Assembly: GCA_964422585.1 (NCBI GenBank)
Contig: CAYRBH010000005.1
Coordinates: 3,401-67,400 of the forward strand
DNA from: an uncultured Gammaproteobacteria bacterium
Lineage (GTDB): Bacteria > Patescibacteriota > Patescibacteriia > UBA1558 > 2-01-FULL-52-15
Direction of reading: 5' to 3'
Length of the DNA: 64,000 nucleotides
Position 1 is the first letter of the stretch. The number at the start of each line of letters is the position of its first letter. The notes under the pieces were generated by a model. That model worked only from the letters and a program-made list of their open reading frames with translations. It made no database searches and was not told the origin of the DNA. This document shows, one piece after another, positions 3,945 through 63,511 of this stretch. A program made the position numbers and the translations under genes.

Positions 3945-3953
3945 TACGGAAGT

Positions 3954-39100: not shown

Positions 39101-42100
39101 TAGGTAAGAAAGATGGTTGCTTGCTCTTCCTCGACATGAGCAAGCGAGACGTGAAGAATTATAGCGCCTTTGCCAGCTATGATAAGAGCGATGGTAACAA
39201 TGGCGGTCTGGTGCAACCAGTGTCATGCGCTGCAGGGGACCCGAATTGCAGTAATGATAGCAATACGATACTCAAGGTGCAGCGTGATCGACAGTGCTCA
39301 GAGTGGCTCGCCTGCCGCAGCGCTACTGAAGTCTTCGACCCGGCGACCAATTCGTTTAGACAGGTCTGTGATCAGGTAGGTACCTGTACCAAGTATTCCT
39401 CAGGGAGCGACATTTTGAACTGTGCTCAGTGGGCGCAGCCATCAACCCAGCGACTCGAGTATGGTTACTATGTGAATCGTTCCATCAATTTCGACGCGGC
39501 TGATTATAGCGGATACTCTATCTATAATGATTATCCGGTCGGTAGCCTCGAGTTGGTCGATATTAGCCACATGGACACCACCTCTGGCGGAGTCACTACT
39601 GAAGGTCCTGACGCGAGGAACCCTGATTATCGCTTGGTACGTGTCGTTGACTCATGTAATAGCACGACATCCTACGGGCAGCCATGCGGGCCTATCGATC
39701 CATTGAATCCGGTCGATAAGCTTGGTAGATGCTTCGCGACGAATAAATGCGTGGTCGGCATCGACGGCAGCAATTTCAGCGCCGACTCTGATTTCGTCAT
39801 CAAACGCTCGACTCGGGCCTATGCTGAGAAAGACTCACCGTTCCCTTATTCGGTCGTGGAGAGCGACCAGGGTGATACGCGTACAGTGAAGTTCGGCTTC
39901 CAGCAGGCGCATATCTGCGATACGGCGACCGCTTCATGCGAGGATCATTACTATAAGTTCCAATATGGCGCTGCTAATGCCATCACGAAGTATTTTTCAG
40001 CTGATGTGCAGCTATCAGGTGGCGCGATACCGACCTGCGTATGTCAGGGTGGTCAGCTTGATAACCAAGAATGTTCGACCAAGGATATCGAAGGAGCATT
40101 CGCGTGCAGTAGTGCGAGTGGTACGACGACTGGCTCCTGTCAGACAGATGCCGATTGTAACAAGAATGGTAATACTGGACAGCGATGCTTGCCTGCTCCT
40201 GACGGTAAGCTGTCAGCAGAAGAGCGCTGCCCCGATAATGGTAGCCCGCTGTATTTGAGGAGATCAGATAGCTTCCTGAACTGGCCTGGATTCTGTCTGG
40301 AGAAGGATAATCGGGCTAATATCAATGCGTCGCAGACCGAGCATGCCTGCCTGAACTGGTTGCCGGTAGATAATGCGCCGGTAGGCTATGATTTCTATAA
40401 TCAGAATAGAGAAGCTGGCTACTCCTACAAAGCCCCTGCTTATTATTGCCTCGAAGTGGGCCTGTTCGAATTCCGTCATAAGGTGAATGTGGGATGTATG
40501 TGTTCAGGCGACTGTACTACAGGTAATTCGAACATCAATCCTGACCCGCGCTACTACCATACTGAATGGGGTCCGAATTGTGGCTCATGCCATAGCTGGC
40601 ATGCGTGGGGCAATAGATATGTATGCTACATAGTCCCGAATGGCGGAGAAGGTTCATATCCCTACAATGGCGACACTATAGCGACTTGGTATGGCCAACC
40701 TCTCGAAGATAAGCCAGACAGCAGCTGTCAGGTACTGGGTATGGCAGTGGATGCCAAAGGCGAGAATGCCGCGATGACCAACTTCTTCTGGTCGGATTAT
40801 AAGGGTGGCGCGGGTTATGCTATAGGCGATAATCCTATCGGTACCAGCACAGCGCCGCTCGGCTATAAACTCGGTCAAGACGATAAGCCATTCGGCTCAG
40901 CAGTACCCACGGGCTTTGGATTCGTGACCGACCAGCTGACTATGCAATCTTCGCAGAGCATACCTCGCGCTGGCAGCCCCTATGCGTGTAGCAGTACCGC
41001 AGCTTCCTGCGCGCTCTGGGATCCAATTAATAATTCGCCACTGGCAATACAAGGTTGGAAAAATCCGCCGTTCGTGGGGAATGAAGGCTATACGATCGGT
41101 GTCCGTCGCTTGAAAGAGATCTATCGTAAGATATTCAATATCTATCGATGGGGAAATGGCAATACTTGCGACAATATGATCTGCGGCCGCACTGATGATG
41201 GGCCGAATGCTAGTGGCGTCAGCCCGGAGCATGGCGGTTATTTCGGTGGACAAGCCTGTGATCCTGCTGATGCGAATTCATGTAACAATACGCCGGGCGT
41301 GACATCGTGCGCACCAATCATTCAGAAATGTGTCAACTCGGTATTCAATAATCAAACTAATCCATCGTCTTCCCTGACATCGAACTGCCAGACCTGCCGG
41401 CCAGGCGATCTTGTCGAGAGGACTCCCGATAAACGTTGTATGAGCTCGACGCTCTACACTGATGCGGCCTCCTGTGAATCTGCTACCTTATGTACTTCCG
41501 CCTATCCTGGAGGAGCCTGCGCTGTTGATCCAACCGATGCTTCAGGAAGGTATCGATGCTACAGCGCGAAGTTGGCTGGTAATGATTGTAAGATCCCAAC
41601 CAATCCTGACGGTACACTCATCGCTTCGTATCTGACCTGTAATCAGACGACACCGGGGCAGCCAGGCACCTGCTTCTACAATGGTGAAGATACCCAAGTG
41701 CCGTGTAATTCGGTCAGTGATTGCACGGCGAATGATGATGGTGACCCGAACAATACTATCGGTACATTGGCGGCGACGAATAAGACAGCGTATTGCGCGG
41801 ATAATAACTTAGAAGGCACCTATGATTATGGCACCGGAAGCTTCTGCCTTGGTGAGCCATTCTCATTCGGTGATAATATCGGTAACCCGAACGCCTACCT
41901 CTTCAATGGCCCGCCGGTACACTGTGAGGGCGGCGCCAATCCTGCGACATACACGAATGCGCTTGGCTATACCCTTACCGGTCCGGATATCTGTAATTTC
42001 CACGGTATGTGCTTGGCCTCATTTGAAGTCAAGAACGCCAGCGGAGCATTGATGTGCAAGCAGCAACCTGAGAAAGGCTATCTCCCGCTCTGTAACCCTG

Positions 42101-42968: not shown

Positions 42969-45527
42969 ATGCGGTCACTTACTACCAAAACAAAAAATAT
43001 AAGCCGGACATTCTGGATACTGCTCATGACCGTCGCGGTCAGCGGAGTTGGTATTTTGTTAGCGCATCCGGTCTATGCTGATTGGGTGCAGGATGTGTTC
43101 GGCCCGATCATACTCTATGGTATATTCTCGCCTTTCATAATTCTTCTGAACCTCCTGACCTATGCGTTGGTGAAAGTCGCTCTGTACAATGGTTTTGCTA
43201 ACGCAACCATCGTCAATATCGGCTGGCCGATCATTCGAGATGTCAGTAATATGTTCTTCGTGCTGATCTTGTTGGTTATCGCTATCGGTACGATAGTGAA
43301 ATGGGACAGAATCAATTACCGGCAGAACTTACGACGCCTCATCATCATGGCTTTGCTCATCAATTTCAGCAAGACCATCGTCGTTTTTTTCATTGATATA
43401 TCTCAGATTTTCACCCTAACCTTCATCAATGCGGTCAGCAGTGTGCTGCAAGTCGGTATGATCACGGCATTAGGCTTGAATAAAATAGCGAACCCGGTCA
43501 CTGAAGGATTGATAGATACCTCTACTCAGGCAGGTATCGGGTTATTTACCTATATCATGGCCGGCATTATGGTCGCGATAGCTGCACTCACGGTGGCAGT
43601 TATGGTCATTATTTTCGTAGTGCGTATCATTACTCTTTGGGTTTTGATGGTGTTCGCGCCGCTGGCTTTCTTGGCCAGCACCTTACCGCAAACAAAACGT
43701 TGGTATGATGAGTGGTGGGATGCATTAGGCAAGGCGCTGGTCGTAGCGCCGGTTCTTGCCTTCATGCTCTGGCTGGTGTTCGCGGTTGTTTCTAAAGATG
43801 CAAGTTTTGCGAATGTCGGTGGTTTCACAGGAACTGATCCCGCCCCCCAAGGCGTTGCCCCGGGCGACATCATCGCCTTCGCGACAGCTATAGGGCTTCT
43901 GATCTACTCTATCAAGCTTGCGATACAAATGGGCGGTGCTGGTGGTAAATTCGCTTCTGCATTGCAGAGCAAAGCAGCGGGCGGAGCTAAGTGGCTTGCC
44001 TATGGTTCAAGCGGCAAGGGAGGATTGGTCGGCTTGGTGAAGAGCGGAGCTACCGCGGCAGTGACAAGGCCGGTACAGACTGCGGGAAATATCGCAGGAG
44101 GAGCTTATCGTTTGACGGTAGGCGGCTTAGGAGCTGGCGGGGTACAAACAGTGGGACGTATTATCGGCAGCGAACGCATACAGCGTGCTGGCGCCCGAGT
44201 TAGAGAGGATGTTGCTGCGCGTGGTCGACGCTTTGATGCTGCTACGAAAGAATCTCGCGCTACGTTCGATTCTTCTCGTAATGTATTTGCGCGTACGGCG
44301 AGATTTGGTCTGGGCGTATTGAGCCGGCAGGAAGAGGATCGTCAGAAAGCCCGTGCTGCTATATATACAGGGTCTACTGCTCGCGAAGATTTGAAGTCAC
44401 GTGTCGATAATATTCAGAACCCAGTTATCTTCCCTGCCAAGAAAGCTGAGGAGGCTCGCCAGATAGTGAAGGATGGTCAGCTAGAAGAAATAGAGAAGAT
44501 GAGCAAAGCAGGCCAGCTTCCAGAGGGATTTGCACAGCAAGTCTTTGACCGCTTCATCTCTGATTCTGGTTTGACTGCCCAAGAACAGCTCGAGTACAAG
44601 AAGAAAAATCTGCGTTATGTGAAGGATAGGCAGGAACGGAAAAAACTTAATAATGAGCTTGCTGATGATAAGAAACTGCCGTCTCTCGATGATCTGCGTA
44701 GTAAGAATGCTGCTGGTGAAAACGAAGTCGCAGCAAATTTCGTGGCAGACGCCTATGGTCGTCTGAGTAAGGATGATTTTGGTGATCTCATGAAAAAGAT
44801 GCCGCGCGATCTGCAGGACGCTATCGCTAAAGGAATGCAGATCTCCATGCGTCGCTTATCCGATACTGCCACAGGGCGTGATCCGAAAGAAATTGATAAG
44901 GATCTCGAGCGCATACGCGGCGAGCTGATCAAGCGTGATCCTGATAATATACGCAGTACGTACTCGAAGCCAATAGAGAAGGGCCCTGATGGCCAGTATC
45001 GTTTCAATACTCTGGCTGCTTCAGATGAAGCGATCATCAGGCAGCATGTTCGCAAGCTCAAGCCGAAAGAATTCAGCAGTATGAAAGAGGACACCTTGCG
45101 CGACGTCGGTTACCATTTGGCACCGGGCGATATCGTCAAAGTTATCAACCATGAGGATATGAATCCTGAGCAGAAAGAGGCTATCATTGAGAGCGTCGGA
45201 AGCCACTTGGGGGATGAGAATATCAATGTTACCTTTAATAGCATACTCAAGAATGACCTAGTAGGAGGCGACACTCGAAAATTGGTACAAGAATCGTTGA
45301 ACCCTGCTAGCCCAGACAGCATTTTCAGTAAGCTGAAAACAGCTGGTGGTGATCCTGATGCAGCAGTTGCGGCTACAGATACCGATGATGTCGCTAAGTT
45401 GAAACAGCGTCTTGCCGCGTATCGTAAAATGAAAGTTGCTATAGACGCTTATGATACATCGAAAGGCGGCGGCTCGAAGCCGAAGGATTCCGCGACGCCA
45501 CCTCCTCCAGATAGCCGTACGCGTTAG
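42969..45527 (+). CDS. Polytopic membrane protein with long hydrophilic C-terminal domain; putative VirB6/TrbL-like T4SS channel component
   Basis: The start is 3 bp after the giant gene. It has a signal/TM and about six TM helices in the first ~330 aa with a large loop, a Gly-rich segment, and a ~450-aa charged coiled-coil C-terminus. The topology resembles VirB6/TrbL/ConG. Confidence 0.45.
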   Translation: MRSLTTKTKNISRTFWILLMTVAVSGVGILLAHPVYADWVQDVFGPIILYGIFSPFIILLNLLTYALVKVALYNGFANATIVNIGWPIIRDVSNMFFVLILLVIAIGTIVKWDRINYRQNLRRLIIMALLINFSKTIVVFFIDISQIFTLTFINAVSSVLQVGMITALGLNKIANPVTEGLIDTSTQAGIGLFTYIMAGIMVAIAALTVAVMVIIFVVRIITLWVLMVFAPLAFLASTLPQTKRWYDEWWDALGKALVVAPVLAFMLWLVFAVVSKDASFANVGGFTGTDPAPQGVAPGDIIAFATAIGLLIYSIKLAIQMGGAGGKFASALQSKAAGGAKWLAYGSSGKGGLVGLVKSGATAAVTRPVQTAGNIAGGAYRLTVGGLGAGGVQTVGRIIGSERIQRAGARVREDVAARGRRFDAATKESRATFDSSRNVFARTARFGLGVLSRQEEDRQKARAAIYTGSTAREDLKSRVDNIQNPVIFPAKKAEEARQIVKDGQLEEIEKMSKAGQLPEGFAQQVFDRFISDSGLTAQEQLEYKKKNLRYVKDRQERKKLNNELADDKKLPSLDDLRSKNAAGENEVAANFVADAYGRLSKDDFGDLMKKMPRDLQDAIAKGMQISMRRLSDTATGRDPKEIDKDLERIRGELIKRDPDNIRSTYSKPIEKGPDGQYRFNTLAASDEAIIRQHVRKLKPKEFSSMKEDTLRDVGYHLAPGDIVKVINHEDMNPEQKEAIIESVGSHLGDENINVTFNSILKNDLVGGDTRKLVQESLNPASPDSIFSKLKTAGGDPDAAVAATDTDDVAKLKQRLAAYRKMKVAIDAYDTSKGGGSKPKDSATPPPPDSRTR

Positions 45528-51504: not shown

Positions 51505-51966
51505 ATGCAAAAATTCGTGGTACCACAATTCATCGACGTCGAGAGCAAGATCCTGGGTCCTATCACGGTCCGGCAGTTCGCGACGGTCGCGGTCGGCGCG
51601 GTGTTCCTCTTCGCTGCCTATAAGCTGGCTACGTTTAATTTATTCCTGATCTGGGCGACTCTCATTCTCGGAGCTACCATGTTGCTCGCATTCTTTAAGT
51701 TCAATGGCCTTCCTTTTCACATCTTCATGCTGAATGTCGTATCCACCTATAAGCGTCCTATGCTGCGGGTATGGCTGAAAGAAGAGTATAAACCAGTGAA
51801 AGAATCCAAGAACAATAAAGATAAGGCTGAAGAGAAATTTTTCGTCCCGAAGAAGGAATTTTCATCCGAGAAGCTCTCTGAGCTTGCCCTCATAATCGAT
51901 ACGGGCGGTATCTATAAAGGGGAGGCGGAAGCGAATCGTATCAATAAGTCTTTGTATGAAAAGTAA
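51505..51966 (+). CDS. PrgI/VirB3-like small membrane protein
   Basis: 153 aa. The N-terminal ...IDVESKILGPITVRQFATVAVGAV... is followed by two TM helices, and the gene sits directly upstream of VirB4. This is the pattern of PrgI/TcpE/ConD-family proteins, recalled from memory. Confidence 0.5.
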   Translation: MQKFVVPQFIDVESKILGPITVRQFATVAVGAVFLFAAYKLATFNLFLIWATLILGATMLLAFFKFNGLPFHIFMLNVVSTYKRPMLRVWLKEEYKPVKESKNNKDKAEEKFFVPKKEFSSEKLSELALIIDTGGIYKGEAEANRINKSLYEK

Positions 51967-52636
51967 GGCATTACAAGGTAATAAACCGAAGGTCTCTACG
52001 CAGCGTTTCTTGGATATCGCGGAGATCCGCGATGATATGGTCGTGATGAAGGATGGGACGGTGCGCGCGGTTCTGATGGTTTCGTCGGTTAACTTCGACC
52101 TTAAGTCTGAGGAAGAGCAGAATGCCATGGTCGGATCCTATGTGCAGTTCCTGAACTCACTGCAATTCCCTTTGCAGATCGTAGTACAGTCGCGTCCGTT
52201 GAATATCGATGAGTATATACAGCGCCTTATCATCACCGAACGCGAACATTCCAATGAGCTGCTGCGCATGCAGACCGCCGACTACCGCAATTTCGTTAAT
52301 GACCTGGTACATCTTGAGAAGATCATGAGCAAGAAGTTTTTCATCGTAGTGCCGTATGCGCCAGGGCAGGATAATAAGTTGAAATTCAGCGACCGCTTCG
52401 TAAGTTTGTTCTCGACAGCCAAGGCGGTTACCGTGAGCCGTAAGAAATTTGAGAACTATTCCCGTGAACTGAATAAGCGCGCGCTCTTCATCTATTCAGG
52501 CACGACCAGTATGGGATTGACCGCTCGCCGTTTGAATACACAAGCCCTGATTGAGCTGTATTACAATAGTTATAATCCCTCCCTATCTCAGAATGAGCAG
52601 TTGGGAGACATTAATGAATTATCAATCGACGAGTAA
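51956..52636 (+). CDS. VirB4-family N-terminal domain, encoded as a separate ORF (split VirB4, part 1)
   Basis: STQRFLDIAEIRDDMVVMKDGTVRAVLMVSSVNFDLKSEEEQNAMVGSYVQFLNSLQFPLQIVVQSRPLNIDEYI resembles the N-terminus of Gram-positive conjugative VirB4 ATPases (PrgJ/TraE/TcpF type). The TAA stop overlaps the next ATG (TAATG). Confidence 0.55.
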   Translation: MKSKALQGNKPKVSTQRFLDIAEIRDDMVVMKDGTVRAVLMVSSVNFDLKSEEEQNAMVGSYVQFLNSLQFPLQIVVQSRPLNIDEYIQRLIITEREHSNELLRMQTADYRNFVNDLVHLEKIMSKKFFIVVPYAPGQDNKLKFSDRFVSLFSTAKAVTVSRKKFENYSRELNKRALFIYSGTTSMGLTARRLNTQALIELYYNSYNPSLSQNEQLGDINELSIDE

Positions 52637-54543
52637 TGTTTAAACCAAAAGAAGCGCAAGCGACGAAGCAGCAAGAGGATCAGCCGATGCTCTCGTTCGA
52701 GGAGCAGAAATCGATAGGCGTAGAACGAGCGGAGACCGAAGGCGAATTACTCTTGGCGGAGAAGGCGTTCCGCGAGGGTGTCGTCTCAATCACCGATATT
52801 ATAGCACCGGCTGCTTTCAAGGTAGACTCCAGCTTTGTACGCTTGGGAGAACAATTCGTGCGGACAGTATTCGTTGTCGCTTACCCGCGCTATATTACGA
52901 TCGGCTGGTTCGCGCCGATCATCAATTTCAGCCTGGCGCTCGATATCGCGATGTTCTTCTATCCGGTCGACAGCGCTATAATCTTGAAAAAGTTGAAGTA
53001 TAAGGTCGGAGCCATCGAAGCGCAGATAGCCGCAGACTTAGAGAAAGGTGCGCCTCGCGACCCTGTGCAGGAAACAGCGCTCAGGGACATCGAGTCTTTG
53101 CGTGACTCACTGAGCCAGGGCACTGAGAAATTTTTTAAATTCGCTCTGTATATCACGCTGTACTGCAAATCCAAAGAAGAGTTAGATTCGAATACCGATA
53201 AGATCGAGAGTACGCTTGGTGCATATTTGGTCCTTTCACGCAGGTCGCTCTGGCAAGCGGAGCAAGGCTTCAATTCGACTCTGCCTCTCGGCAATGATGA
53301 GATCGCGATCTCGAACAATATGTCATCATCGCCGGCGGCCGCATCGTTTCCCTTCATTTCATCTGAGCTCACCTCGGATAATGGCATCATGTATGGCATC
53401 AATCGGCACAATAACAGCTTGATTATTTTCGATCGTTTCAGCTTACAGAATGCGAATTCGGTCGTCTTCGCGACCTCAGGCGCGGGCAAAAGTTATACGA
53501 TCAAACTCGAAGTGCTGCGCAGCATGATGTTAAATACTGATGTCATCTGTATTGATCCTGAGAAAGAGTATCTGCATCTCTCTGATGCTGTCGGCGGCAC
53601 TTACATCAACTTGTCATTGAACTCAGATAGCAAACTGAATCCTTTCGACCTGCCGACGAACTTGGGTGACAGCAAGCCAGAGGATGTACTCAGGAGCGCG
53701 GTAATCACGCTGAAAGGCTTGATCAGACTCATGGTCGGTGAATTGACGCATGATGAGGACTCGATCGTCGACCGTGCCTTGCTTGAGACCTACGCGAAGA
53801 AGGATATCAGCTCGACCAGCGATTGGTCGAAAGCGGAAATGCCGCTCATGGCTGATCTTGAGCAGATACTCGCTGGTATGATCGGGGGAGAGGACCTCGC
53901 TCTGCGTATCAAGAAGTACACACAAGGAACCTTCTCTGGACTGTTCAATAGCAGGACTAATGTTGACATTACGAATCAGCTTGTTGTCTTCAGCGTCCGC
54001 GACTTGGAAGATGAGCTGCGGCCGATCGCTATTTATACTATCGTAAACTATATCTGGAACGTGGTGCGCTCACATGTGAAGAAGCGCATCCTGGTCATCG
54101 ATGAAGCGTGGTGGCTCATGCAGCATGAGGATTCGGCGAAGTTCATCTATGCCTTGGTCAAGCGTTGCCGCAAATACTACCTGGGCGTCACGACCATTAC
54201 GCAAGACGTGAATGACTTCCTGCGATCACCTTATGGACAGGCTATCGTTACCAACTCCAGTATGCAGATCCTGTTGAAGCAATCACCTGCATCCGTTGCG
54301 CTCATTCAGAAGACCTTCATATTGACCGAGGGTGAGAAGTATTTACTGCTCGAATCAGGAGTCGGAGAAGGCATTTTCTTCGCCGGTAACAAGCATGCCG
54401 CGATTAAAGTGCTCGCTTCCTATACTGAAGATCAGATCATCACCTCAGATCCGAAACAACTTTTGCAAATAGAGGAATCTAAGAAAGAGTTCAAGCAGGC
54501 TATGCAATTGCAGCAGGAGTCTGCCCCTGAGCCAGCAGCTTAA
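52636..54543 (+). CDS. VirB4-family T4SS ATPase (split VirB4, part 2; contains the full ATPase core)
   Basis: Walker A VVFATSGAGKSYT, Walker B ILVIDEAWWLM, and the surrounding AAA_10/VirB4-type blocks (VAYPRYITIGW..., GINRHNNSLIIFDRF, TTITQDVNDF). Confidence 0.85.
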   Translation: MFKPKEAQATKQQEDQPMLSFEEQKSIGVERAETEGELLLAEKAFREGVVSITDIIAPAAFKVDSSFVRLGEQFVRTVFVVAYPRYITIGWFAPIINFSLALDIAMFFYPVDSAIILKKLKYKVGAIEAQIAADLEKGAPRDPVQETALRDIESLRDSLSQGTEKFFKFALYITLYCKSKEELDSNTDKIESTLGAYLVLSRRSLWQAEQGFNSTLPLGNDEIAISNNMSSSPAAASFPFISSELTSDNGIMYGINRHNNSLIIFDRFSLQNANSVVFATSGAGKSYTIKLEVLRSMMLNTDVICIDPEKEYLHLSDAVGGTYINLSLNSDSKLNPFDLPTNLGDSKPEDVLRSAVITLKGLIRLMVGELTHDEDSIVDRALLETYAKKDISSTSDWSKAEMPLMADLEQILAGMIGGEDLALRIKKYTQGTFSGLFNSRTNVDITNQLVVFSVRDLEDELRPIAIYTIVNYIWNVVRSHVKKRILVIDEAWWLMQHEDSAKFIYALVKRCRKYYLGVTTITQDVNDFLRSPYGQAIVTNSSMQILLKQSPASVALIQKTFILTEGEKYLLLESGVGEGIFFAGNKHAAIKVLASYTEDQIITSDPKQLLQIEESKKEFKQAMQLQQESAPEPAA

Positions 54544-55154: not shown

Positions 55155-55736
55155 ATGGCTGAAGCAGTACAACAATTCCCTTACTATGACGCAGTAGCGC
55201 GCGATCAAGAAGAAGCGCGCCGCGCGCGCGAATTGCGCGCGCGGCGAGTGATGACCGGCGCCCTTCGAGCTGAACAGGGCCGTCAGAGCGCCTTCGGCCA
55301 AGTCGGTCAATCGGCCGAGGCTTTGCAGGAGATCCAGAAGAAAATAAAGAATATACGGAATGTCGTCACGCTTATCGGAGGACTGACTTCGCTCACCCTG
55401 ATTGGTATTATTTGGACCATTATACAATGGAATCTACAGATGATATGGAAAGTATTTGGATTGCCAGGTGAAAATTATTTTGGCCTTTCCTGGTGGCTTG
55501 TGCCGGTGATACTATTGGTTGATTTTATCCTGTTTATACTTTTTATTGCAGTGATGCTGGTCGCGTTCTTCGTTTCAAATCCGACCCAAGCCTGTAGCAT
55601 CGCTCCCGATCTGACGAAGTTAGCGCTTGGCGATGGATTCATAGGAACCTTGGGTACTTTAGGAGCTAAAGTGCTCTGTGGCATCCCTGCTCTGATCAGC
55701 CACGCTGTAGATACAATTAAGAGCGCGGTTCAATAG
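55155..55736 (+). CDS. Hypothetical membrane protein (Arg-rich N-terminus, 3-4 TM helices)
   Basis: 193-aa ORF inside the operon with RRARELRARRVM followed by hydrophobic helices. No family recognised. Confidence 0.35.
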   Translation: MAEAVQQFPYYDAVARDQEEARRARELRARRVMTGALRAEQGRQSAFGQVGQSAEALQEIQKKIKNIRNVVTLIGGLTSLTLIGIIWTIIQWNLQMIWKVFGLPGENYFGLSWWLVPVILLVDFILFILFIAVMLVAFFVSNPTQACSIAPDLTKLALGDGFIGTLGTLGAKVLCGIPALISHAVDTIKSAVQ

Positions 55737-55737
55737 T

Positions 55738-56970
55738 ATGGATAGAAAAAGAATATTACTTATCACGTTATTCATCCTGTCGGTCATTCTGTTCGGCTGG
55801 GGTTTGTATGCGATATTCTTCAGCAGTCTCTTGCCGGGCGCTCCTACCAATGGGAATACGAATCAAGTTGGCACCTTGCCAACCCCTGGCAATGGCGGTC
55901 CGGGCAGAGTCAATACCAATGCAAGCCAGACACCGGTGCTGCCCGGTTTCTCGACGACTATCGATGTGAATGCGCCCACGGATATCGCACAGGGCGGCTA
56001 TACTAAAGTAGTGGATTATGGTTCAACGCAGGTTCAGGACTTCGTTTCCGGATCCCAGGGGGCTTTTTTCTACAACAAAGACTCGGGCTTATTCTATAAA
56101 ATGGATGCTGGCAAGGCAGTACCGATTTCTGATCAGAAGTTTTTTGATGTAAGTACTATTACCTGGTCTGCTGATCAGAGTAAGGCTATCCTGGAGTATC
56201 CTGATGGCTCGAATATCGTCTACGATTTCAAAGCGAATAAGCAGATATCCTTGCCGAAAGAGCTGACCGATTTTTCGTTCTCGCCGCAAGGTGATTCTAT
56301 AGCCGGCAAATGGATGGGCAAAACTAATGATGAGAATTGGCTCATGGTGGGAGATTCGAATGGTTCGAATTTTAAGCTGATTGAGCCGCTCGGTGATCGA
56401 TACAATAATGTGCAAGTAGATTATTCTAATGACGGGCAAGTCGTGGCCCTGGTGCGAGACCCGGTCGACGCGAACACACAGAGCGTACTGCCTATCGGTT
56501 TGAATGGTGAGAATTTCCCCTCATTCAATGTGGAAGGGCTGAAATTCGAGAGCAAATGGGCCCCCAGCGGCGATCAGTTGCTCTATAATGTCTCGACCAA
56601 AGACAATAACTATGATCCTAAGCTCCTCATTACCGGTGGTAATGGTGATACGCTTGGTTCGAGCAGTCTGGATCTACAGCTGAACACCTGGGCTTCGAAA
56701 TGTGCCTTCAATGCAGCCTCGACTTCGCTCTATTGTGCCGAGCCAACGAGTTTGCCGCGCGGTTCAGGTCTCTATCCTGATCTGGCGCGGGGTATTCCTG
56801 ACGTGTTCTATCGTATCGACCTGCGGAGCGGACAGAAGATACCGCTGGCAGTCCCGGTCGGCAATCAATCGTCGTATAGCGCTTCATCGGTATTCCTGTC
56901 GCAGGATGAAAAGTCATTGTACTTCGTCGATGAATTGACCAATCAACTGCATTCGATACGGCTACAGTGA
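55738..56970 (+). CDS. N-terminally anchored beta-propeller-like (TolB/WD40-like repeat) protein
   Basis: A TM helix, then a G/N/P/T linker and repeated ~40-aa blocks with aromatic/Gly/Asp patterns (..DGS.IVYDF.., ..DGQVVALVRD.., ..SGDQLLYNV..). Confidence 0.35.
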   Translation: MDRKRILLITLFILSVILFGWGLYAIFFSSLLPGAPTNGNTNQVGTLPTPGNGGPGRVNTNASQTPVLPGFSTTIDVNAPTDIAQGGYTKVVDYGSTQVQDFVSGSQGAFFYNKDSGLFYKMDAGKAVPISDQKFFDVSTITWSADQSKAILEYPDGSNIVYDFKANKQISLPKELTDFSFSPQGDSIAGKWMGKTNDENWLMVGDSNGSNFKLIEPLGDRYNNVQVDYSNDGQVVALVRDPVDANTQSVLPIGLNGENFPSFNVEGLKFESKWAPSGDQLLYNVSTKDNNYDPKLLITGGNGDTLGSSSLDLQLNTWASKCAFNAASTSLYCAEPTSLPRGSGLYPDLARGIPDVFYRIDLRSGQKIPLAVPVGNQSSYSASSVFLSQDEKSLYFVDELTNQLHSIRLQ

Positions 56971-57617
56971 TGAAGCGTTTTTTTATAGTGTTAGGTATTC
57001 TTCTGGTAGTTATCGGAGGCTTGGCATTGCTCATTAGCATCTATGGGACGGAGGATCAGCAAGCAGCCACTCCCGTAACAACTCCTGTGCAGCATGGGTT
57101 GCACGCTGCAGACACCGATCCTTCTCAGGGACCACGTAATGGGAAGGTGACGGTCATCACGATGAGTTCATTTACCTGTCCAGCATGTAAAAGTACGAGC
57201 GAAGAGATGGATCAGTTGCGGGCGCTCTATCCGGATCAGGTCCGTCTCGTCTGGAAGGATCTGCCTGATACCGTTGGTACTGCCTATCAGGCCGCGATAG
57301 CTGCTCGTTGCGCTCAGGAGCAAGGCAAGTTCTGGCAATTTCACGATGTTCTTTTTCAGAAACAAGATTTTCTAGCGACGCGTTCCCTGTATACCTTATG
57401 GGCTCAGGCTCTAGGTATGCTGAGCGATGTATTCGATAACTGCCTGGATAAGCAACAGACGAAGCCGCTCGTCGATGCTAATATCAACGAAGCGCTCCAG
57501 CAGGGTGTGAAACTGGTCCCTTATGTGCAAATAGGGGATATGACCTATGAAGGGCCGCAGACGCTTACGGTGTATCGGACAGCAGTCGATCAAGCTCTTG
57601 GTATGACAAAGAAGTAA
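56967..57617 (+). CDS. DsbA-like thiol:disulfide oxidoreductase (membrane-anchored)
   Basis: An N-terminal TM helix, then a thioredoxin fold with SFTCPACK (CPxC), DsbA-like helical-insert sequence (FWQFHDVLFQKQ) and a cis-Pro region (KLVPYV). Confidence 0.75.
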   Translation: MMKRFFIVLGILLVVIGGLALLISIYGTEDQQAATPVTTPVQHGLHAADTDPSQGPRNGKVTVITMSSFTCPACKSTSEEMDQLRALYPDQVRLVWKDLPDTVGTAYQAAIAARCAQEQGKFWQFHDVLFQKQDFLATRSLYTLWAQALGMLSDVFDNCLDKQQTKPLVDANINEALQQGVKLVPYVQIGDMTYEGPQTLTVYRTAVDQALGMTKK

Positions 57618-57619
57618 GT

Positions 57620-58525
57620 ATGTCCCCCCAAAAAACCTCCCTCATTGTAGTGACTTTGGCGCTGCTCACCCTGTGTGCCATGCCTGTGCATGCCCTGACG
57701 GGTACTGATGTCATGAAGTACACTGGCTTAACCAAAGCCGACCAGACCTGCACGTTCACGTCCATGTCAGGCCTCCTGAACAATGGTAAAGTATTCACCA
57801 GCGGCTGTACCGGAGGCGACCTCGTTGCCTTTATCAATGCCCTCGATACCTTCTTCTACCGCCTCGCCATAGTCTTAGCAGTTCTCATGATAACCATCGG
57901 GGGTATGCAGTGGCTCATGGCCATAGGCAATTCCTCCAAAATCTCCAATGCCAAAGATACTATCCAACAGGCTGTCATAGGCCTGATCCTTGCTATGACT
58001 GCCATACTACTCTTCAACCAGATAGACCCAAGCTTTACGAATTTGAAGAGTATAGATTTGAAGAAATTGGATTCGGCAACAAGCGCTTCATGCGAATCTA
58101 TAACTGCGATAGCGCAATGTCTCGCTACAAAAAATTGTCGATGGACCCCAACGGATCCTACGAAAGGAGCATTGAGCGCAGGTACCTGTAGTGCTGGAGA
58201 CGCGACACAGGATGGTGACTGTAGCGGAGCTAGCTCAGGAACTTGCCTCAATTACACAGGTTGTTATTTAAGCAAAGATGGGCTGTGTGCTTCGTCGCCG
58301 AATATATGTATAAAGACTGCCGCTGACTATCAATCTTTCAAAGCTCAATACTCCACGGTCAAGCCTGAGTGCTGTGTTAATAAAAGCGGGCCGACACCCG
58401 TATATGCTTGGGCTAACTTTGTACTGAATAAGAATATTGAGTGTTCTACAGTATGCGGCTCGGATGCTCTTTCTACAGAATGGCAGAAAGGCGATATAAA
58501 TGACTGCATAAATAATATGCAATAG
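57620..58525 (+). CDS. Pilin-like (VirB2/TrbC-like two-helix hairpin) protein, paralogue A, with Cys-rich C-terminal domain
   Basis: A signal peptide (…PVHA), a short Cys-containing segment, two long hydrophobic helices separated by NSSKISNAKDT, then a ~150-aa domain with about 15 Cys. The N-terminal 145 aa are identical to paralogue B. Confidence 0.4.
   Translation: MSPQKTSLIVVTLALLTLCAMPVHALTGTDVMKYTGLTKADQTCTFTSMSGLLNNGKVFTSGCTGGDLVAFINALDTFFYRLAIVLAVLMITIGGMQWLMAIGNSSKISNAKDTIQQAVIGLILAMTAILLFNQIDPSFTNLKSIDLKKLDSATSASCESITAIAQCLATKNCRWTPTDPTKGALSAGTCSAGDATQDGDCSGASSGTCLNYTGCYLSKDGLCASSPNICIKTAADYQSFKAQYSTVKPECCVNKSGPTPVYAWANFVLNKNIECSTVCGSDALSTEWQKGDINDCINNMQ
57689..58047. repeat. Direct repeat copy 1 (359 bp, identical to 58608..58966)
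   Basis: A constant offset of 919 bp and no mismatch found by eye over the whole length. The identical antisense ORFs in the track (57856..58251 and 58775..59008) share the same peptide, which corroborates the repeat. Confidence 0.9.
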
Positions 58526-58538
58526 TTTTGAATTAGAA

Positions 58539-59651
58539 ATGTTTACTAGAGCGCGTCTCTTTATCCTTGTTAGTGTCGGCCTATCACTGGTACTGTCTGT
58601 CCCGGCTCATGCCCTGACGGGTACTGATGTCATGAAGTACACTGGCTTAACCAAAGCCGACCAGACCTGCACGTTCACGTCCATGTCAGGCCTCCTGAAC
58701 AATGGTAAAGTATTCACCAGCGGCTGTACCGGAGGCGACCTCGTTGCCTTTATCAATGCCCTCGATACCTTCTTCTACCGCCTCGCCATAGTCTTAGCAG
58801 TTCTCATGATAACCATCGGGGGTATGCAGTGGCTCATGGCCATAGGCAATTCCTCCAAAATCTCCAATGCCAAAGATACTATCCAACAGGCTGTCATAGG
58901 CCTGATCCTTGCTATGACTGCCATACTACTCTTCAACCAGATAGACCCAAGCTTTACGAATTTGAAAGGCCCGACGCTTGTGACGTCAACTTTCAGTTGT
59001 GAGACCATTCAAGATCCTAGTTCATGTATTGCCCAGGCAGCGGCGAATTCTTGTAAGTGGACCTGCACCGATCCATCGGAAAGTAAGAAACGGGTACTCC
59101 CGCCGAACACCAAGTGGACCTCTGATTTTCAGAACCCACTGTGCATACCTGGGAAATGCACGACGGGCGTTACGACGGCCGGAGGTGCGGCAAATGCAGC
59201 AACTTGTGATAATACGAGTGGACTCGCGGCCCAGTATGGAACGAATCCGAACCTTACAAACTCGCCTCAGTTGAATGCTTTGATACAATGTGTTAACAGT
59301 AGTCCGGCCGGAGCTCTTCTCGGGCCAGATTCGAATCAGGGAACCTGGGAAAGTGCTCAGCATAACACAAAATGTAATTTTACGCGGGGTAATCCCATCT
59401 GTGGGCCATGTGTACACGCGGTGAACTCGTGTCACTATGGTGGTAAGACTGGTAATAATGGCGCTGAGGCCGTTGACTTTAACGCGGCAGATGGATCACC
59501 TGCCGGAGAAGCAGCGTTATGCCGGGCTTTGAGAGCTGCGAGTGCTGGCTGCAACTTCGGATTCCTTAACTTCGAAGGTAATCATACTCATGTAAGCACA
59601 GCCTCATGTGATGGCGATGGCACAGGCATCGGAACAGACTGTCCGAGCTAA
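58539..59651 (+). CDS. Pilin-like (VirB2/TrbC-like) protein, paralogue B, with a different Cys-rich C-terminal domain
   Basis: The N-terminal module is the same as paralogue A, with a perfect 359-bp DNA repeat. The C-terminal ~220 aa are unrelated, Cys/Gly/Asn-rich and end in ...DGDGTGIGTDCPS. Confidence 0.4.
   Translation: MFTRARLFILVSVGLSLVLSVPAHALTGTDVMKYTGLTKADQTCTFTSMSGLLNNGKVFTSGCTGGDLVAFINALDTFFYRLAIVLAVLMITIGGMQWLMAIGNSSKISNAKDTIQQAVIGLILAMTAILLFNQIDPSFTNLKGPTLVTSTFSCETIQDPSSCIAQAAANSCKWTCTDPSESKKRVLPPNTKWTSDFQNPLCIPGKCTTGVTTAGGAANAATCDNTSGLAAQYGTNPNLTNSPQLNALIQCVNSSPAGALLGPDSNQGTWESAQHNTKCNFTRGNPICGPCVHAVNSCHYGGKTGNNGAEAVDFNAADGSPAGEAALCRALRAASAGCNFGFLNFEGNHTHVSTASCDGDGTGIGTDCPS
58608..58966. 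repeat. Direct repeat copy 2 (359 bp, identical to 57689..58047)
   Basis: See copy 1. Identity ends exactly where the two C-terminal domains begin (…CTAATTTGAA then G vs A). Confidence 0.9.
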
Positions 59652-59655
59652 CGGT

Positions 59656-61029
59656 ATGGCTATACAGACGATATATGTTTGTTCCAACTGCGACGCCCAA
59701 GCTCCCAAGTGGTCTGGACGCTGTTTAGAGTGTGGTAAATGGGGGACCTTAGTTGAACAAGCAAAGCCGGTTATTGCGGCAAAGACCGCCCGAGGCAAAG
59801 CCGCGGGCGGCTCGAGGCCAGCCTTTTCTTCTGCGCCCGCAAAAGTCATTAAATTTTCTGACCTTGAACAAGGCGCGGTACAGCGCATTTCTGCCAAAGG
59901 TTTTCCCTTTGATGAGATTTTTCCAAAAGGCATAGCTTTAGGCAGCCTGACCTTGCTGACCGGCGAACCTGGTTCAGGTAAATCAACACTTGCTTTGCAG
60001 CTGATGCGGACTTTGAGTAGCGAGCATCAAGCCTTGTATGTCTCGGCAGAGGAGTCAGCGGTACAGGTGAAGGAACGTGCCAGTCGTGTAGGCACCTTTG
60101 GTCACTACTTTAGTATTACGGAAAGCACGAATCTGGAAGAAATCATCGCTACATTACATGTCCAGAAACCAAAAGTCGTGTGCATTGATTCTCTACAGGC
60201 CATAGTGAGCGCCGAAGTCACCGGTGATGCTGGATCTTTGAATCAAATCAGAGCCGTGACCGCGCAACTGTTAGAGTTAGCTCGTAAGGAACACATAGCA
60301 ATTCTTCTGATCGGTCATGTGACAAAAGACGGCACCTTGGCAGGTCCGAAATCGCTGGAACATTTGGTAGATGCAGTCTATTACCTCGAAGCTGATCGTA
60401 ACAGCAGTTATCGTCTCCTGCGCGTCTACAAGAATCGCTATGGCGCTTCAGGTGCAGTCCTCGTTATGCAAATGGGCGGGGGAGGCATGACAGCGGTCGC
60501 AAACCCAGCAACGATTTTCATTCATAACTTTAGCCCCAAGCCCGGCTCAGTGCTGACCGTGACTGAAATTGATGATCAGTTTTTCTTTCTGGAAGTTCAG
60601 GCTTTGGTTGCCAAAAGCGGTTTTGGCTATGCCAAGCGCACTGCGTCTGGTTTTTCTAAGTCGCGTCTTGAATTATTGCTCGCGATTGTCAAAAAACAAC
60701 TACATATCGATGCCGATCTCTATGATATCTATATCAATATTGCCGGCGGCTTTTCCGTGCATGAGCCGGCGCTTGATCTTGCAGTATTGATGAGTATTCT
60801 CTCAAGCCTCAAAGAGCAATCTTTGCCTCCGAAGACAGTTGTCTTTGGCGAACTTGGCCTTTCAGGAGAGCTGCGCGTGGTGAAAGACACGGGAGCACGC
60901 TTGAAGACTATTGCTGAACATGGGTTTGCAAACGTGTATTTCCCGCCGCTTGAACAGAAAGTACAGAGTAAACTAAATCTACACTCATTCGCTTCAATTA
61001 CAGAGTTTGTAAAAAAACTTGGTTGGTAA
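59656..61029 (+). CDS. radA: DNA repair protein RadA/Sms
   Basis: N-terminal C4 zinc finger (CSNCDAQAPKWSGRCLECGKWG), Walker A GEPGSGKSTL, the KNRYG motif and a Lon-protease-like C-terminal domain. The start is taken at the Met just after the upstream stop. Confidence 0.93.
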   Translation: MAIQTIYVCSNCDAQAPKWSGRCLECGKWGTLVEQAKPVIAAKTARGKAAGGSRPAFSSAPAKVIKFSDLEQGAVQRISAKGFPFDEIFPKGIALGSLTLLTGEPGSGKSTLALQLMRTLSSEHQALYVSAEESAVQVKERASRVGTFGHYFSITESTNLEEIIATLHVQKPKVVCIDSLQAIVSAEVTGDAGSLNQIRAVTAQLLELARKEHIAILLIGHVTKDGTLAGPKSLEHLVDAVYYLEADRNSSYRLLRVYKNRYGASGAVLVMQMGGGGMTAVANPATIFIHNFSPKPGSVLTVTEIDDQFFFLEVQALVAKSGFGYAKRTASGFSKSRLELLLAIVKKQLHIDADLYDIYINIAGGFSVHEPALDLAVLMSILSSLKEQSLPPKTVVFGELGLSGELRVVKDTGARLKTIAEHGFANVYFPPLEQKVQSKLNLHSFASITEFVKKLGW

Positions 61030-61034
61030 AACAT

Positions 61035-61403
61035 ATGTCTACAATCCACTTTATTCAGCATGGGTTCAAGAGACCCACTAAAGCGGCCGGCGCTCTTAAA
61101 GAGGCATTAGAGATTCGTGGAGTTGGAGTTTTATCAGAATTATATGACGGTTATAAACACATTGATTTAGCCATTCCTAGGGCAAAGATTAATATCGAGA
61201 TTGATGGTATTCAACATCTGATAAACCCATATCAAATTGTCGCAGACCTTTCGCGCGGATATTATTCCAATCAATTAGGTTACAATACTATGCATATACC
61301 AAACGAAATGATACGTTTACATCTGCCTGAAATTGCCGACGCTTTAGCCGAGGCATCTAAAATTCGAGAGCAAAGAATAAGGGTTCATCTCACAAAATCC
61401 TAA
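61035..61403 (+). CDS. DUF559 (Vsr-like endonuclease fold) domain protein
   Basis: ...DGYKHIDLAIPRAKINIEIDGIQH... matches the DUF559 core. The track ORF starts at a TTG that overlaps the radA stop; ATG at 61035 is the likelier start. Confidence 0.55.
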   Translation: MSTIHFIQHGFKRPTKAAGALKEALEIRGVGVLSELYDGYKHIDLAIPRAKINIEIDGIQHLINPYQIVADLSRGYYSNQLGYNTMHIPNEMIRLHLPEIADALAEASKIREQRIRVHLTKS

Positions 61404-61429: not shown

Positions 61430-63511
61430 TTATTCCCAATGCAACCCCACCCGTTCATCTAGTCTGTGCGTAATTGAGTTATAGTAGTCTAGGTTTGTAT
61501 CATCTTTCACAATCTGATCAACATATTTTTTCGCCTTTTCGATCAAATCAGTATCACGCAACGTAGCTATTTTGAAATTAACGATACCAGATTGTCTGGT
61601 GCCAAAGACTTCTCCTTCGCCACGGAGTTTCAGATCTGCTTCAGCAAGCTCGAAACCGTCATTACTCTTGGTCAGCAACTCAAGCCGCTGTTTCGTTGTT
61701 TCATTTTTACTTTCAGTAAAGAGCAGACAATAGGATTGCATGTCATTTCTGCCAACCCGGCCTCGGAATTGATGGAGCTGCGCAATACCGAACCTGTCGG
61801 CGCCTTCGATCACCATGACAGTGGCTTTGGGTATATCAATGCCCACTTCTATCACCGAGGTTGTAACGAGAATCGGGAAGGCGCCGCTCTTGAAATCCTC
61901 AAGTATTTTTTTCTTTTGTTCCGGCTTCAGCTTGCCATGTAAGTAACGAAGCTCCAGATCAGGGAAAATATCCTTTTGTAGCCGTTCATATTCAGAAAGC
62001 ACGGATTTGCTTTCACTTTTATCATTCTCATTGATCAAGGGGCAGAGGATAAATATCTGTTGTCCTTTTTTGATAAGCCCCCGGATAAAGTCATAGGCTT
62101 TGGGTCGTTTAGTTTCATCAACGATTTTGGTAATGATCGGCTTTCTGCCTTGTGGCCGTTCTTTAATGTTTGTAACCTGGAGCTCGCCATACAATGTCAA
62201 AGCAAGCGTACGGGGGATTGGGGTTGCGGTCAGTGAAAGTAAATGCGGAACCATGCCATCGCGTCGCATCGAAGTCAATGTTTTTCGCTGTCCAACACCG
62301 AATCGATGCTGCTCGTCAACGACTGCAAGCCCCAAATTTGGAATATGCAGATCTTTCTGAATGAGACTATGTGTGCCGATGATCAGGAGTATCTGTTCAC
62401 TCCCAAGCCCCTCTACTATAGTATTTCGCGAGGTCTTCTTGCCCCGGTACATGGCATGTTTGGCTGTCAGTAGGGCAATAGGCAGACTCGGTAGTAGTTT
62501 TGTGAGGGTTTCATAGTGCTGCAGTGCCAAAACCTCAGTCGGAGCCATGAGCGAGCTCTGATAGCCTGCCAAAGCAGTGCTTAACATACCCATAGCAGCG
62601 ACAACGGTCTTCCCAGAGCCCACATCGCCTTGCACCAGACGGTTCATTGGCTCTGATTTCTCAATATCCTGCACAATCTGATACCCAGCTTTTTTCTGGT
62701 CATCAGTCAGTTTGAAAGGAAGTGTTTTGACCCAGTCAGCAATATCTTGCTGCTTGAATGGAATCTGCGGCGTATCATGCTGTTGATAGAAACGCTTTGC
62801 ATACCCAACGCCCAACTGCAGCCAAAAAAGTTCTTCAAATTTTAAACGACGTATCGCTTTCTCTAGTTTTTCAGGATCATCAGGAAAGTGAACCTGTTTC
62901 AGAGCGTCCGCCAGCAATGGCAGCTTTTCTTTTGAAATTATGTCCTCAGGTATTTCTTCAACCGGCTGCTCGGCAGTTTTCAAGGCCGTTTGTATGAGGA
63001 AGCGCAGCTGTTTATGGCTGACTCCTTCAGTCAATGAGTAGTAGGGGATGATATGCGCCGTATGCAGTTGTTCTTCTCTGACTTTTTCATAGACCGGATT
63101 GATAAACTCCGGGCCAACCAAGGTTAGTTTTGCTTTTCCAGAAAGGTATATCTCGTCACCAACTTTCAATGTCTTACTAATATACGATTGTCCAAACCAT
63201 ACTGCTTTAAGCTCACCAGTATCATCTTCCATACGCAGGTCAGTAATAAACATTCTTTTTTTGAACGACCGAAATGCTTTGACTGCGATAATTTTTCCAC
63301 GTACCGTTACTACCGTGTCGGCGGGTATATCGGCAACGTGAACAACAGTGCGCATATCTTCATAGCGCAGAGGCACATACCAGAGCAAGTCGGCGATGGT
63401 AGTGATACCAAGTCTGTGTAATCTCGGAGCTGTTTTGCTGCCGATATGGTGTAAGTCTTCGAGTGGGGATTCCAGGGAGAGCATATGGGTATTGTACCAG
63501 AAGAAATACAA
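61430..63511 (-). CDS. recG: ATP-dependent DNA helicase RecG
   Basis: An N-terminal wedge/OB region, Walker A GDVGSGKT, DEQHRFGV (DExH), TATPIPRTL and QLHQFRGRVGR. Full length, about 690 aa. Confidence 0.93.
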   Translation of the reverse strand: MYFFWYNTHMLSLESPLEDLHHIGSKTAPRLHRLGITTIADLLWYVPLRYEDMRTVVHVADIPADTVVTVRGKIIAVKAFRSFKKRMFITDLRMEDDTGELKAVWFGQSYISKTLKVGDEIYLSGKAKLTLVGPEFINPVYEKVREEQLHTAHIIPYYSLTEGVSHKQLRFLIQTALKTAEQPVEEIPEDIISKEKLPLLADALKQVHFPDDPEKLEKAIRRLKFEELFWLQLGVGYAKRFYQQHDTPQIPFKQQDIADWVKTLPFKLTDDQKKAGYQIVQDIEKSEPMNRLVQGDVGSGKTVVAAMGMLSTALAGYQSSLMAPTEVLALQHYETLTKLLPSLPIALLTAKHAMYRGKKTSRNTIVEGLGSEQILLIIGTHSLIQKDLHIPNLGLAVVDEQHRFGVGQRKTLTSMRRDGMVPHLLSLTATPIPRTLALTLYGELQVTNIKERPQGRKPIITKIVDETKRPKAYDFIRGLIKKGQQIFILCPLINENDKSESKSVLSEYERLQKDIFPDLELRYLHGKLKPEQKKKILEDFKSGAFPILVTTSVIEVGIDIPKATVMVIEGADRFGIAQLHQFRGRVGRNDMQSYCLLFTESKNETTKQRLELLTKSNDGFELAEADLKLRGEGEVFGTRQSGIVNFKIATLRDTDLIEKAKKYVDQIVKDDTNLDYYNSITHRLDERVGLHWE

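Follow-up and report, generated by a model that had tools for sequence, protein, structure and literature searches.

The window analyzed here is a 64,000-nucleotide stretch of contig CAYRBH010000005.1 (assembly GCA_964422585.1, positions 3,401 to 67,400 of the forward strand), which is deposited as an uncultured Gammaproteobacteria bacterium and has a GTDB lineage within the Patescibacteriota. Two adjacent genes in this window, which we call A and B, share an exact direct repeat of 359 bp. Each gene encodes a signal peptide, a stem that resembles the VirB2-type pilins of type IV secretion systems (T4SS), and a large Cys-rich C-terminal part, which we refer to as the head. The features of the pair are listed here, with open reading frame abbreviated ORF and amino acids abbreviated aa.

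57620..58525, + strand: gene A, ORF of 301 aa, with signal peptide, VirB2-like stem, and orphan Cys-rich head
57689..58047, + strand: repeat copy 1, the stem module, gene A codons 24 to 143, an exact match to 58608-58966
58048..58525, + strand: head A, 158 aa, 14 Cys, matching no established fold or family
58539..59651, + strand: gene B, ORF of 370 aa, with signal peptide, VirB2-like stem, Cys-rich linker, and Hedgehog/DD-peptidase-like head
58608..58966, + strand: repeat copy 2, the stem module, gene B codons 24 to 143, an exact match to 57689-58047
59181..59624, + strand: candidate LAS (Hedgehog/DD-peptidase) fold domain of B, aa ~215 to 362, with invariant H293, S297-C298-H299, D313, E346, H349, and H351

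An exact stem module in two tandem genes

Recomputing the repeat gives an exact match of positions 57689 to 58047 with positions 58608 to 58966, at an offset of 919 and with 0 mismatches, just as the original prediction for this locus had it. The match cannot be extended by even 1 base at either end. Compared at this offset, the flanks agree only at chance level, with 36 to 38% identity upstream and 26% downstream. The repeat occupies nucleotides (nt) 70 to 428 in both gene A and gene B, which places it at the same codon offset in each. It begins 2 codons ahead of the predicted signal-peptide cleavage site (between VHA and LTG in A and between AHA and LTG in B) and ends directly past the second hydrophobic helix (...FTNLK). 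Neither gene is truncated; A and B have separate signal peptides and stand close together, with spacers of 2 nt (before A) and 13 nt (between A and B). A promoter and terminator scan detected no promoter- or terminator-like site between A and B on the coding strand.

The shared stem contains 2 Cys residues and a helix-loop-helix hydrophobic hairpin, and this part of the original prediction is borne out both by hydropathy and by the AlphaFold2 (AF2) models. Hydropathy places the hydrophobic segments of the stem at aa ~68 to 103 and 113 to 137, with an N-terminal segment at aa 1 to 28, and the AF2 helices lie at aa 2 to 20 and then in a long alpha-hairpin (65 to 100 plus 105 to 140). Residues 68 to 133 match the T4SS_pilin family PF18895 in both proteins (34.1 bits for A and 34.4 bits for B, with a gathering score of 26.6). 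Weak TrbC Pfam matches are found in 5 of the 21 family members, and Foldseek gives a weak match to the conjugation pilin of Aeropyrum pernix (8dfu). The PF18895 scores above the gathering score, together with the T4SS operon in which the genes stand (see below), uphold the proposal that the shared module is a hairpin of the VirB2/TrbC pilin type.

Beyond the stem the two proteins part. The head of A has 158 aa with 14 Cys and that of B has 227 aa with 16 Cys, each an even number. The original prediction described these 3' domains as unrelated and totally divergent; they are indeed different Cys-rich domains, but that description is overstated, because the two proteins remain homologous in a 29-aa linker just past the junction (SCExI; CxxxxxxxC...CxWTxTDP), with 41% identity and an E value of 5e-4 in a heads-only BLASTP search. 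Since a homologous but diverged linker continues past the end of the identical tract, the tract is only one homogenized part of a longer paralogous region. No third copy of the module was found when the 359-bp module was compared with the 64-kb window by BLASTN; these two copies are the only ones, and the silent cassettes for which a self-comparison had been suggested do not appear in the window. Likewise, a search of all six-frame ORFs of ≥50 aa in the window with a hidden Markov model of the stem detected no other pilin-like ORF, including any short head-less pilin.

Stem identity within and between genomes

Four further assemblies have the same gene order, DsbA-A-B-radA: L001, a 633-kb contig of a metagenome-assembled genome (MAG); L002, a Logan contig; and L003 and L004, two ENA scaffolds. 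The B heads of the window and of L001 to L004 are orthologous, and gene B has many further homologues in metagenomes. For the A head of the window, local BLASTP detected orthologues in L002 (protein P0017) and in protein P0015. The nucleotide identities between the A and B stems of each genome are as follows.

Window, A versus B stem: 100% over 359 nt
L001, A versus B stem: 100% over 207 nt
L002, A versus B stem: 88% over 211 nt
L003, A versus B stem: 97% over 288 nt
L004, A versus B stem: 95% over 288 nt

Overall, the stems are 84 to 100% identical at the nucleotide level for A versus B in one genome, versus 64 to 80% across genomes, and the sequence states of the stem are genome specific and common to A and B of each genome. 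The lengths of the homogenized tracts (359, 207, 211, and 288 nt) and their end points vary by lineage. Among codons that specify the same amino acid, 0 to 1 of 78 differ for A versus B in the window, versus 29 to 30 of 68 to 70 for the window versus L001. At the protein level, the stem is the best-conserved part across genomes (87 to 90% aa identity, window versus L001), and the baseline for this pair of genomes is 95% aa and 80.5% nt identity for VirB4 and 92% aa and 80% nt identity for radA. Because these genomes share the A/B arrangement, yet their core genes are only ~80% identical at the nucleotide level, the A/B duplication must be older than the split between the window and L001. Taken together, these comparisons indicate that the A-B pair predates the species that carry it and that the stems evolve in concert by gene conversion. 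The recent gene conversion proposed in the original prediction is thus supported by stems that are identical within a genome, with 0 to 1 of 78 synonymous differences, in a gene pair that is older than speciation.

The closest comparison is between L003 and L004, which are ~99.9% identical overall and have ~18 differences over the 3.7 kb around the pilin genes. Twelve of these ~18 differences sit in the gene A stem, in two reciprocal patches: in patch 9365-9414 the A gene of L003 equals B, and in patch 9558-9567 the A gene of L004 equals B, with B unchanged between the strains. These patches have the appearance of ongoing short-patch B-to-A conversion, although assemblers can also mix near-identical repeats.

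High stem similarity inside a genome is seen at no fewer than 9 independent loci, and unrelated Patescibacteria show it independently of the window. In L018, two pilin-fusion genes are alike over 322 nt at 98.4%, with a longest exact run of 243 nt; one of them has an NlpC/P60 head and the other has a Cys-rich head of no recognized family. The paralogue pair of L048 is alike over 342 nt at 90%, and the pairs of L031, L016, and L017 are 76 to 81% identical over the whole gene and 81 to 88% identical over the stem. Several genomes combine a homogenized stem with different heads in the two genes of a pair: L018 is one of them, and in L031 the stem is joined to a 3D domain head in one gene and to an M15-like head in the other. 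In contrast, the arrays of Saccharibacteria consist of five or six short pilins (~95 to 180 aa) that are 25 to 50% identical. When metagenome DNA was scanned by pattern for variants at strain level and for further contexts, nothing turned up, and a protein-pattern scan added only eight distant loci. As a separate observation on L018, its two genes (1042-1974 and 3836-4735) are 1.9 kb apart with two genes between them, and the MAG is labeled Bdellovibrionales but looks like a Patescibacterium.

Several other explanations of the identical stems have to be weighed. The contig is metagenome assembled, 359 bp exceeds the usual k-mer length, and near-identical repeats can be evened out by bubble-popping, so that an assembler might have merged two similar stems into one consensus or, in the extreme case, produced a tandem misjoin. 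We consider such an artefact unlikely, because four independent assemblies show the two genes again in this arrangement, each gene with a signal peptide and a head of its own; other assemblies resolve the stems at 88%, 95%, and 97%; and stem similarity is found at the ≥9 independent loci described above. An artefact could account for perfect instead of near-perfect identity, but not for the gene arrangement or for what is seen across genomes. Moreover, concerted evolution would hold even if a few differences had been smoothed. A very recent tandem duplication followed by head replacement, with no recurrent conversion, would account for the perfect identity and for the sharp boundary at the end of the stem. 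Against it stand the orthologous A/B positions and B heads in genomes that are ~80% identical in nucleotide sequence at their core, the A-head orthologues in the more distant L002 lineage, signal peptides and a linker that are old and diverged, tract lengths that vary by lineage, and the strain-level patches; we regard it as highly improbable. Extreme purifying selection without recombination, with either the stem protein or a nucleic acid element (RNA or DNA) inside it as the target, is in keeping with the stem being the most conserved part of the protein (87 to 90% aa, window versus L001). However, protein-level selection cannot yield this identity, because synonymous sites are not frozen by it, and 0 to 1 of 78 same-amino-acid codons differ within the window, versus 29 to 30 of 68 to 70 between genomes. 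The genome-specific stem states common to A and B also speak against it, Rfam finds no RNA family in the stem, and a conserved nucleotide-level element is not seen among stems that are 64 to 80% identical across genomes. Of all the alternatives, this one is the hardest to credit.

The original prediction had gone further and likened the pair, as a constant stem with variable tips, to systems of phase variation, antigenic variation, or receptor switching. In a programmed system of this kind, alternative tip cassettes would recombine with the stem, much as in pilE/pilS, and the neighboring radA and recG might help. A perfect repeat beside highly divergent, fast-evolving heads does resemble such a system, the repeat is in frame, so that recombination would give a functional chimera, and antigenic variation or host range has been the subject of speculation for VirB2 arrays (PMC12102498). 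However, there are just two copies, with no silent or truncated cassettes in the 64-kb window. Both genes are complete, with their own signal peptides, in one operon with spacers of 2 nt and 13 nt, and the coding strand has no promoter- or terminator-like site between them. It is the constant stem that is converted, and the heads are not exchanged; the two-gene layout and the same B head are fixed across diverged genomes, and the B head, an enzyme-like domain, is conserved in distant relatives. The radA and recG genes are syntenic housekeeping genes. We therefore consider programmed switching very unlikely, a little less so than a recent duplication. The interpretation that we consider likely, based on sequence comparison, is that A and B are tandem VirB2-like pilin-fusion paralogues that end a Patescibacteria-type T4SS operon, with stems that are gene converted and heads that are divergent.

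Heads of A and B and their relatives

The B head has an invariant residue pattern, H-x5-SCHYG...AxD...E-x2-HxH. Within it, all 21 homologues keep H293, H299, D313, H349, and H351, and E346 does not vary in alignments of 14 and 15 sequences. These residues fit the signature of LAS zinc peptidases (SxHxxG...AxD ... ExxHxH), with a His...Asp...His triad plus the catalytic Glu/His. Over this domain the AF2 model has predicted local distance difference test (pLDDT) values of mostly 81 to 94, and a Foldseek search against the PDB returns Hedgehog N-domains as the top 15 matches (best E value of 0.044, probability 0.97); the LD-carboxypeptidase LdcB comes next. A head-only profile compared with the PDB matches only the N-domains of Desert and Sonic hedgehog (E value of 0.12), and the profile alignment of the B head with Dhh/Shh matches the zinc-ligand and catalytic motifs position by position. 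A profile of full-length B gave no match in the PDB. Because residue pattern, fold, and profile agree, each with a modest statistic, the B head looks like a divergent zinc peptidase of the Hedgehog/DD-peptidase fold and is best treated as a new LAS subfamily. Its substrates would most likely be peptidoglycan stem peptides.

The A head is a different case. An exhaustive search of 1.84 billion representative proteins for relatives of the A head returned A itself and P0015 only. Two other candidate relatives, P0043 and P0044, were rejected as spurious low-complexity repeat proteins. The AF2 model of the A head is poor (pLDDT of 54.6), and Foldseek against the PDB gave no meaningful match. We regard it as an orphan Cys-rich domain, for which a role in binding or adhesion is the most plausible prediction.

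Both heads differ strongly between genomes. Between the window and L001, B is 53% identical overall and the B head alone is ~47% identical, compared with 95% for VirB4, and the A gene of the window can be aligned with that of L001 only through the stem and linker. These values show that the extracellular part of the operon evolves much faster than the cytoplasmic part.

To place these two proteins among related ones, Pfam was used to scan 53 long ORFs with a pilin domain, which come from 44 distinct loci, most of them in other Patescibacteria. The enzyme domains that Pfam recognizes in these 53 ORFs are cell-wall hydrolases only: Peptidase_M15_4 (three), SLT (two), NlpC/P60, 3D, and VanY. In addition, two database homologues have SLT or phage lysozyme domains. 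The B-type head occurs in 5 ORFs of the set, including B of the window. The remaining heads are Cys rich and belong to no recognized family, and several of them have M15- or CHAP-like motifs by eye. The four M15-type matches counted here are the only ones from the Pfam scan, and they are given as counts and not by ORF. LAS-type heads may be commoner than the Pfam counts indicate. By eye, a Hedgehog-like motif is present in the head of L006 3992-4999, from a Komeilibacteria MAG (RHYNGCSVD...GNHLHV), and in the head of L014 791-1960, from a Moranbacteria MAG (SNHYTGQAIDI...NHIHL). By these domain assignments, a VirB2-like stem joined to a cell-wall hydrolase head is a recurrent architecture.

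Operon context, proposed function, and comparison with known systems

Upstream of A and B, on the same strand, lie genes for T4SS components, and the operon is of the monoderm, MPF-FATA-like type. The features outside the gene pair are as follows.

42969..45527, + strand: VirB6/TrbL-like polytopic membrane protein, 852 aa; weak Pfam TrbL match (E value of 1.6e-4, 21.9 bits, below the gathering score)
51505..51966, + strand: PrgI/VirB3-like T4SS component; PF12666 PrgI, 32.7 bits (gathering score 27)
51956..52636, + strand: TrsD/TraC-like T4SS component; NCBIfam TrsD, E value of 2e-9, below the cut-off; the L001 orthologue carries PF26593 TraC-like
52636..54543, + strand: VirB4-type T4SS ATPase; Pfam P-loop_TraG (E value of 4.7e-28), AAA_10, and a weak CagE_TrbE_VirB match
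56967..57617, + strand: DsbA/MdbA-like thiol-disulfide oxidoreductase; Thioredoxin_4 (E value of 1e-24) and DSBA (E value of 1.7e-11); ends 2 nt before A
59656 (probable ATG)..61029, + strand: radA, downstream of B
61430..63511, - strand: recG, after the DUF559 gene

The PrgI, TrsD-like, and VirB4 genes lie 3 to 6 kb upstream of A and B, and the same layout is found in L001 and L003. The operon also encodes three small membrane or secreted proteins, listed between VirB4 and the DsbA-like protein, and the DsbA-like gene keeps its position ahead of A in L001 to L004. A family of DsbA/MdbA-like oxidoreductases is enriched in genomes of the candidate phyla radiation (PMC6744442). The DsbA-like protein of the window is only 60% identical to that of L001 and is thus unusually diverged. 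With regard to the downstream side, the original prediction had placed both radA and recG immediately after the pair. The radA gene is next to B, recG lies past the DUF559 gene, and nothing ties either of them functionally to the repeat; both are ordinary housekeeping genes whose adjacency is part of conserved synteny. The DUF559 ORF itself (61023-61403, + strand; Vsr-like endonuclease fold) fills the gap between radA and recG with a Pfam score of 20.3 bits against a threshold of 20.6, and in L001 an unrelated 250-aa gene stands in its place.

Further upstream in the window is a giant ORF of 3283 aa (33115-42966, + strand) with only a weak CBM_4_9 carbohydrate-binding match; it follows a protein with TSP3 (calcium-binding) repeats (32349-33101) and precedes the VirB6-like 852-aa protein. 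It may be a giant surface protein or adhesin of the T4SS neighborhood. At 55218-55246 lies an inverted repeat (CGCCGCGCGCGC gaatt GCGCGCGCGGCG) with perfect 12-bp arms of G and C only and a loop of 5 nt; it is inside an ORF (55155-55736, + strand), in an Arg/Ala/Glu-rich coding stretch, and was a minus-strand hit of the terminator scan. Almost all homologues of the pilin proteins are from MAGs of Patescibacteria (Komeilibacteria, Uhrbacteria, Moranbacteria, Saccharibacteria, and others). Six MAGs with pilin loci of the Patescibacteria type (L005, L010, L013, L024, L039, and L018) carry the public labels "uncultured Gammaproteobacteria" or "Bdellovibrionales," which are probably taxonomic mislabels.

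By analogy with VirB2, A and B would be exported by the Sec pathway, their signal peptides would be cleaved, and the hairpin would then insert with both ends outside. The head would face outward, and its disulfides would presumably be formed by the DsbA-like enzyme encoded upstream. Both stems would dock on one T4SS platform or become parts of a single stem or pilus structure, and identical stems would be tolerated or favored for that reason. Following an old duplication, non-reciprocal homologous recombination between the adjacent stems gave rise to the 359-bp identity and repeatedly renews it. The B head would cut peptidoglycan cross-links, either in the cell's own wall, to open a passage as VirB1 or PrgK does, or in the wall of a host bacterium, and the A head would bind something on the host surface. 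The in-frame 359-bp repeat would also allow a RecA-type deletion or unequal crossing-over with the loss of 919 bp, the product of which would consist of the A signal peptide, the stem, and the B head, with head A lost. Such a deletion would be a by-product and not a programmed switch, and deletions and unequal crossovers of this kind offer a possible route for the expansion and contraction of arrays. Ordinary gene conversion accounts for the repeat, and no new recombination system is needed.

Several points weigh against this interpretation. The identity is read from assemblies, and without reads, perfect identity is indistinguishable from near identity smoothed by an assembler, which applies equally to the L003/L004 patches. 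That identical stems are selected for co-assembly is our conjecture, and neutral conversion between adjacent repeats would give the same pattern. A VirB2-type filament may have little room for a globular head of 16 to 25 kDa on each subunit, and the label "pilin" need not imply polymerization. Enzyme activity, surface location, and a pilus are predictions; no Pfam, NCBIfam, or PHROG model matches the B head in any of the 21 homologues, and hhalign comparisons of the B head with the M15_4 heads of other pilin fusions are not significant. For the A head, the proposed function is a guess.

Few systems have been shown to be essential for the epibiotic lifestyle of Patescibacteria, and the T4SS is among them (PMC12857230, PMC11665869). 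A six-pilin array and the T4SS are essential in Southlakia epibionticum (Wang et al. 2023, as summarized in PMC12857230), while the role of the T4SS in Patescibacteria has been called "completely unknown" (PMC11665869). A broader reading, which we put forward tentatively and regard as possible rather than probable, is that outside the Saccharibacteria the T4SS "pilins" of many Patescibacteria are not plain filament subunits but a scaffold that delivers and anchors interchangeable, fast-evolving, disulfide-rich heads, many of them cell-wall hydrolases (Hedgehog/DD-peptidase-like, M15, NlpC/P60, SLT, 3D, and lysozyme types), and that gene conversion keeps the stems of co-resident paralogues identical, which would allow one machine to be loaded with different heads. 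If this were true, the essential T4SS of Patescibacteria would be in part a wall-breaching device, with its enzymes carried on a VirB2-like stem facing the host cell, and in many lineages the hydrolase would be attached to the pilin-like stem itself. Homogenized stems with divergent heads would then be a genomic signature by which functional partner "pilins" could be recognized. The B head would also extend the Hedgehog/DD-peptidase fold family by a bacterial branch that is divergent. In the literature we found no description of stem homogenization or of hydrolase-headed pilins, and both the pilin-hydrolase fusion and concerted evolution restricted to one module appear to be undescribed features of Patescibacteria T4SS.

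The nearest known relatives of the pair are the VirB2-like pilin arrays of 2 to 11 genes described in 383 assemblies by Quinonero-Coronel et al. 2025 (PMC12102498). Like A and B, the arrays of Patescibacteria consist of tandem PF18895 paralogues in a chromosomal T4SS context (PrgI/VirB3, TrsD, VirB4, and VirB6-like) with no relaxase nearby. However, the pilins of the published Patescibacteria arrays are divergent in sequence, and their aa identity averages 25% and goes no higher than 54% (PMC12102498), whereas A and B are long fusions with stems identical in nucleotide sequence and large Cys-rich heads, one of them enzyme-like. Expansion of VirB2 paralogues is also on record for Bartonella and Anaplasma, as cited in PMC12102498. 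The conjugative pilins of the VirB2/TrbC/TraA group (T-pilus, F-pilus, and archaeal Ced/Ted) share with A and B a signal peptide, a hydrophobic hairpin, and adjacency to VirB3/VirB4; classical conjugative pilins have ~70 to 120 aa without an extra domain, whereas A and B carry heads of 158 and 227 aa.

Cell-wall hydrolases are known from T4SS, as in VirB1 and, in Gram-positive bacteria, PrgK, TcpG, CwlT, and TraG of pIP501. Hydrolases of the VirB1/PrgK type resemble B in having a membrane-anchored peptidoglycan hydrolase or similar domain encoded within a T4SS operon. In contrast, the anchor of B is a VirB2-like hairpin and not a single transmembrane helix, and its candidate catalytic domain has the LAS fold and not that of SLT, CHAP, NlpC/P60, or M23; we detected no sequence homology of the B head to T4SS hydrolases of the VirB1/PrgK type. 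Most Patescibacteria genomes with VirB2-like arrays lack VirB1 (PMC12102498), and it is plausible that B is a substitute for it. Among LAS peptidases, fold matches to the B head include the Zn D-Ala-D-Ala carboxypeptidase of Streptomyces albus (1lbu), LdcB (4oxd), and the Shh/Dhh N-domain, and the profile alignment runs through H, SxHY, AxD, E, and HxH. Unlike those proteins, the B head has an insertion of 6 to 7 residues between the His and Asp ligands and many extra disulfides, is fused to a pilin stem, and does not reach significance with Pfam M15.

With regard to recombination, the obvious comparison is with pilE/pilS of Neisseria, in which variable segments are moved from silent copies to one expressed locus that encodes type IV pili. 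Both systems involve pilin paralogues, gene conversion, and varying surface parts, but in A and B it is the conserved stem that is homogenized, between two expressed-looking genes, and there are no silent copies in the window. Another parallel is found in duplicated bacterial genes that gene conversion makes evolve in concert, such as tufA/tufB and the rRNA operons. There, as in A and B, paralogues within a genome are more alike than orthologues, synonymous sites are homogenized, and patches are mosaic. The difference is that in A and B conversion is confined to one structural module, while the neighboring modules diverge quickly.

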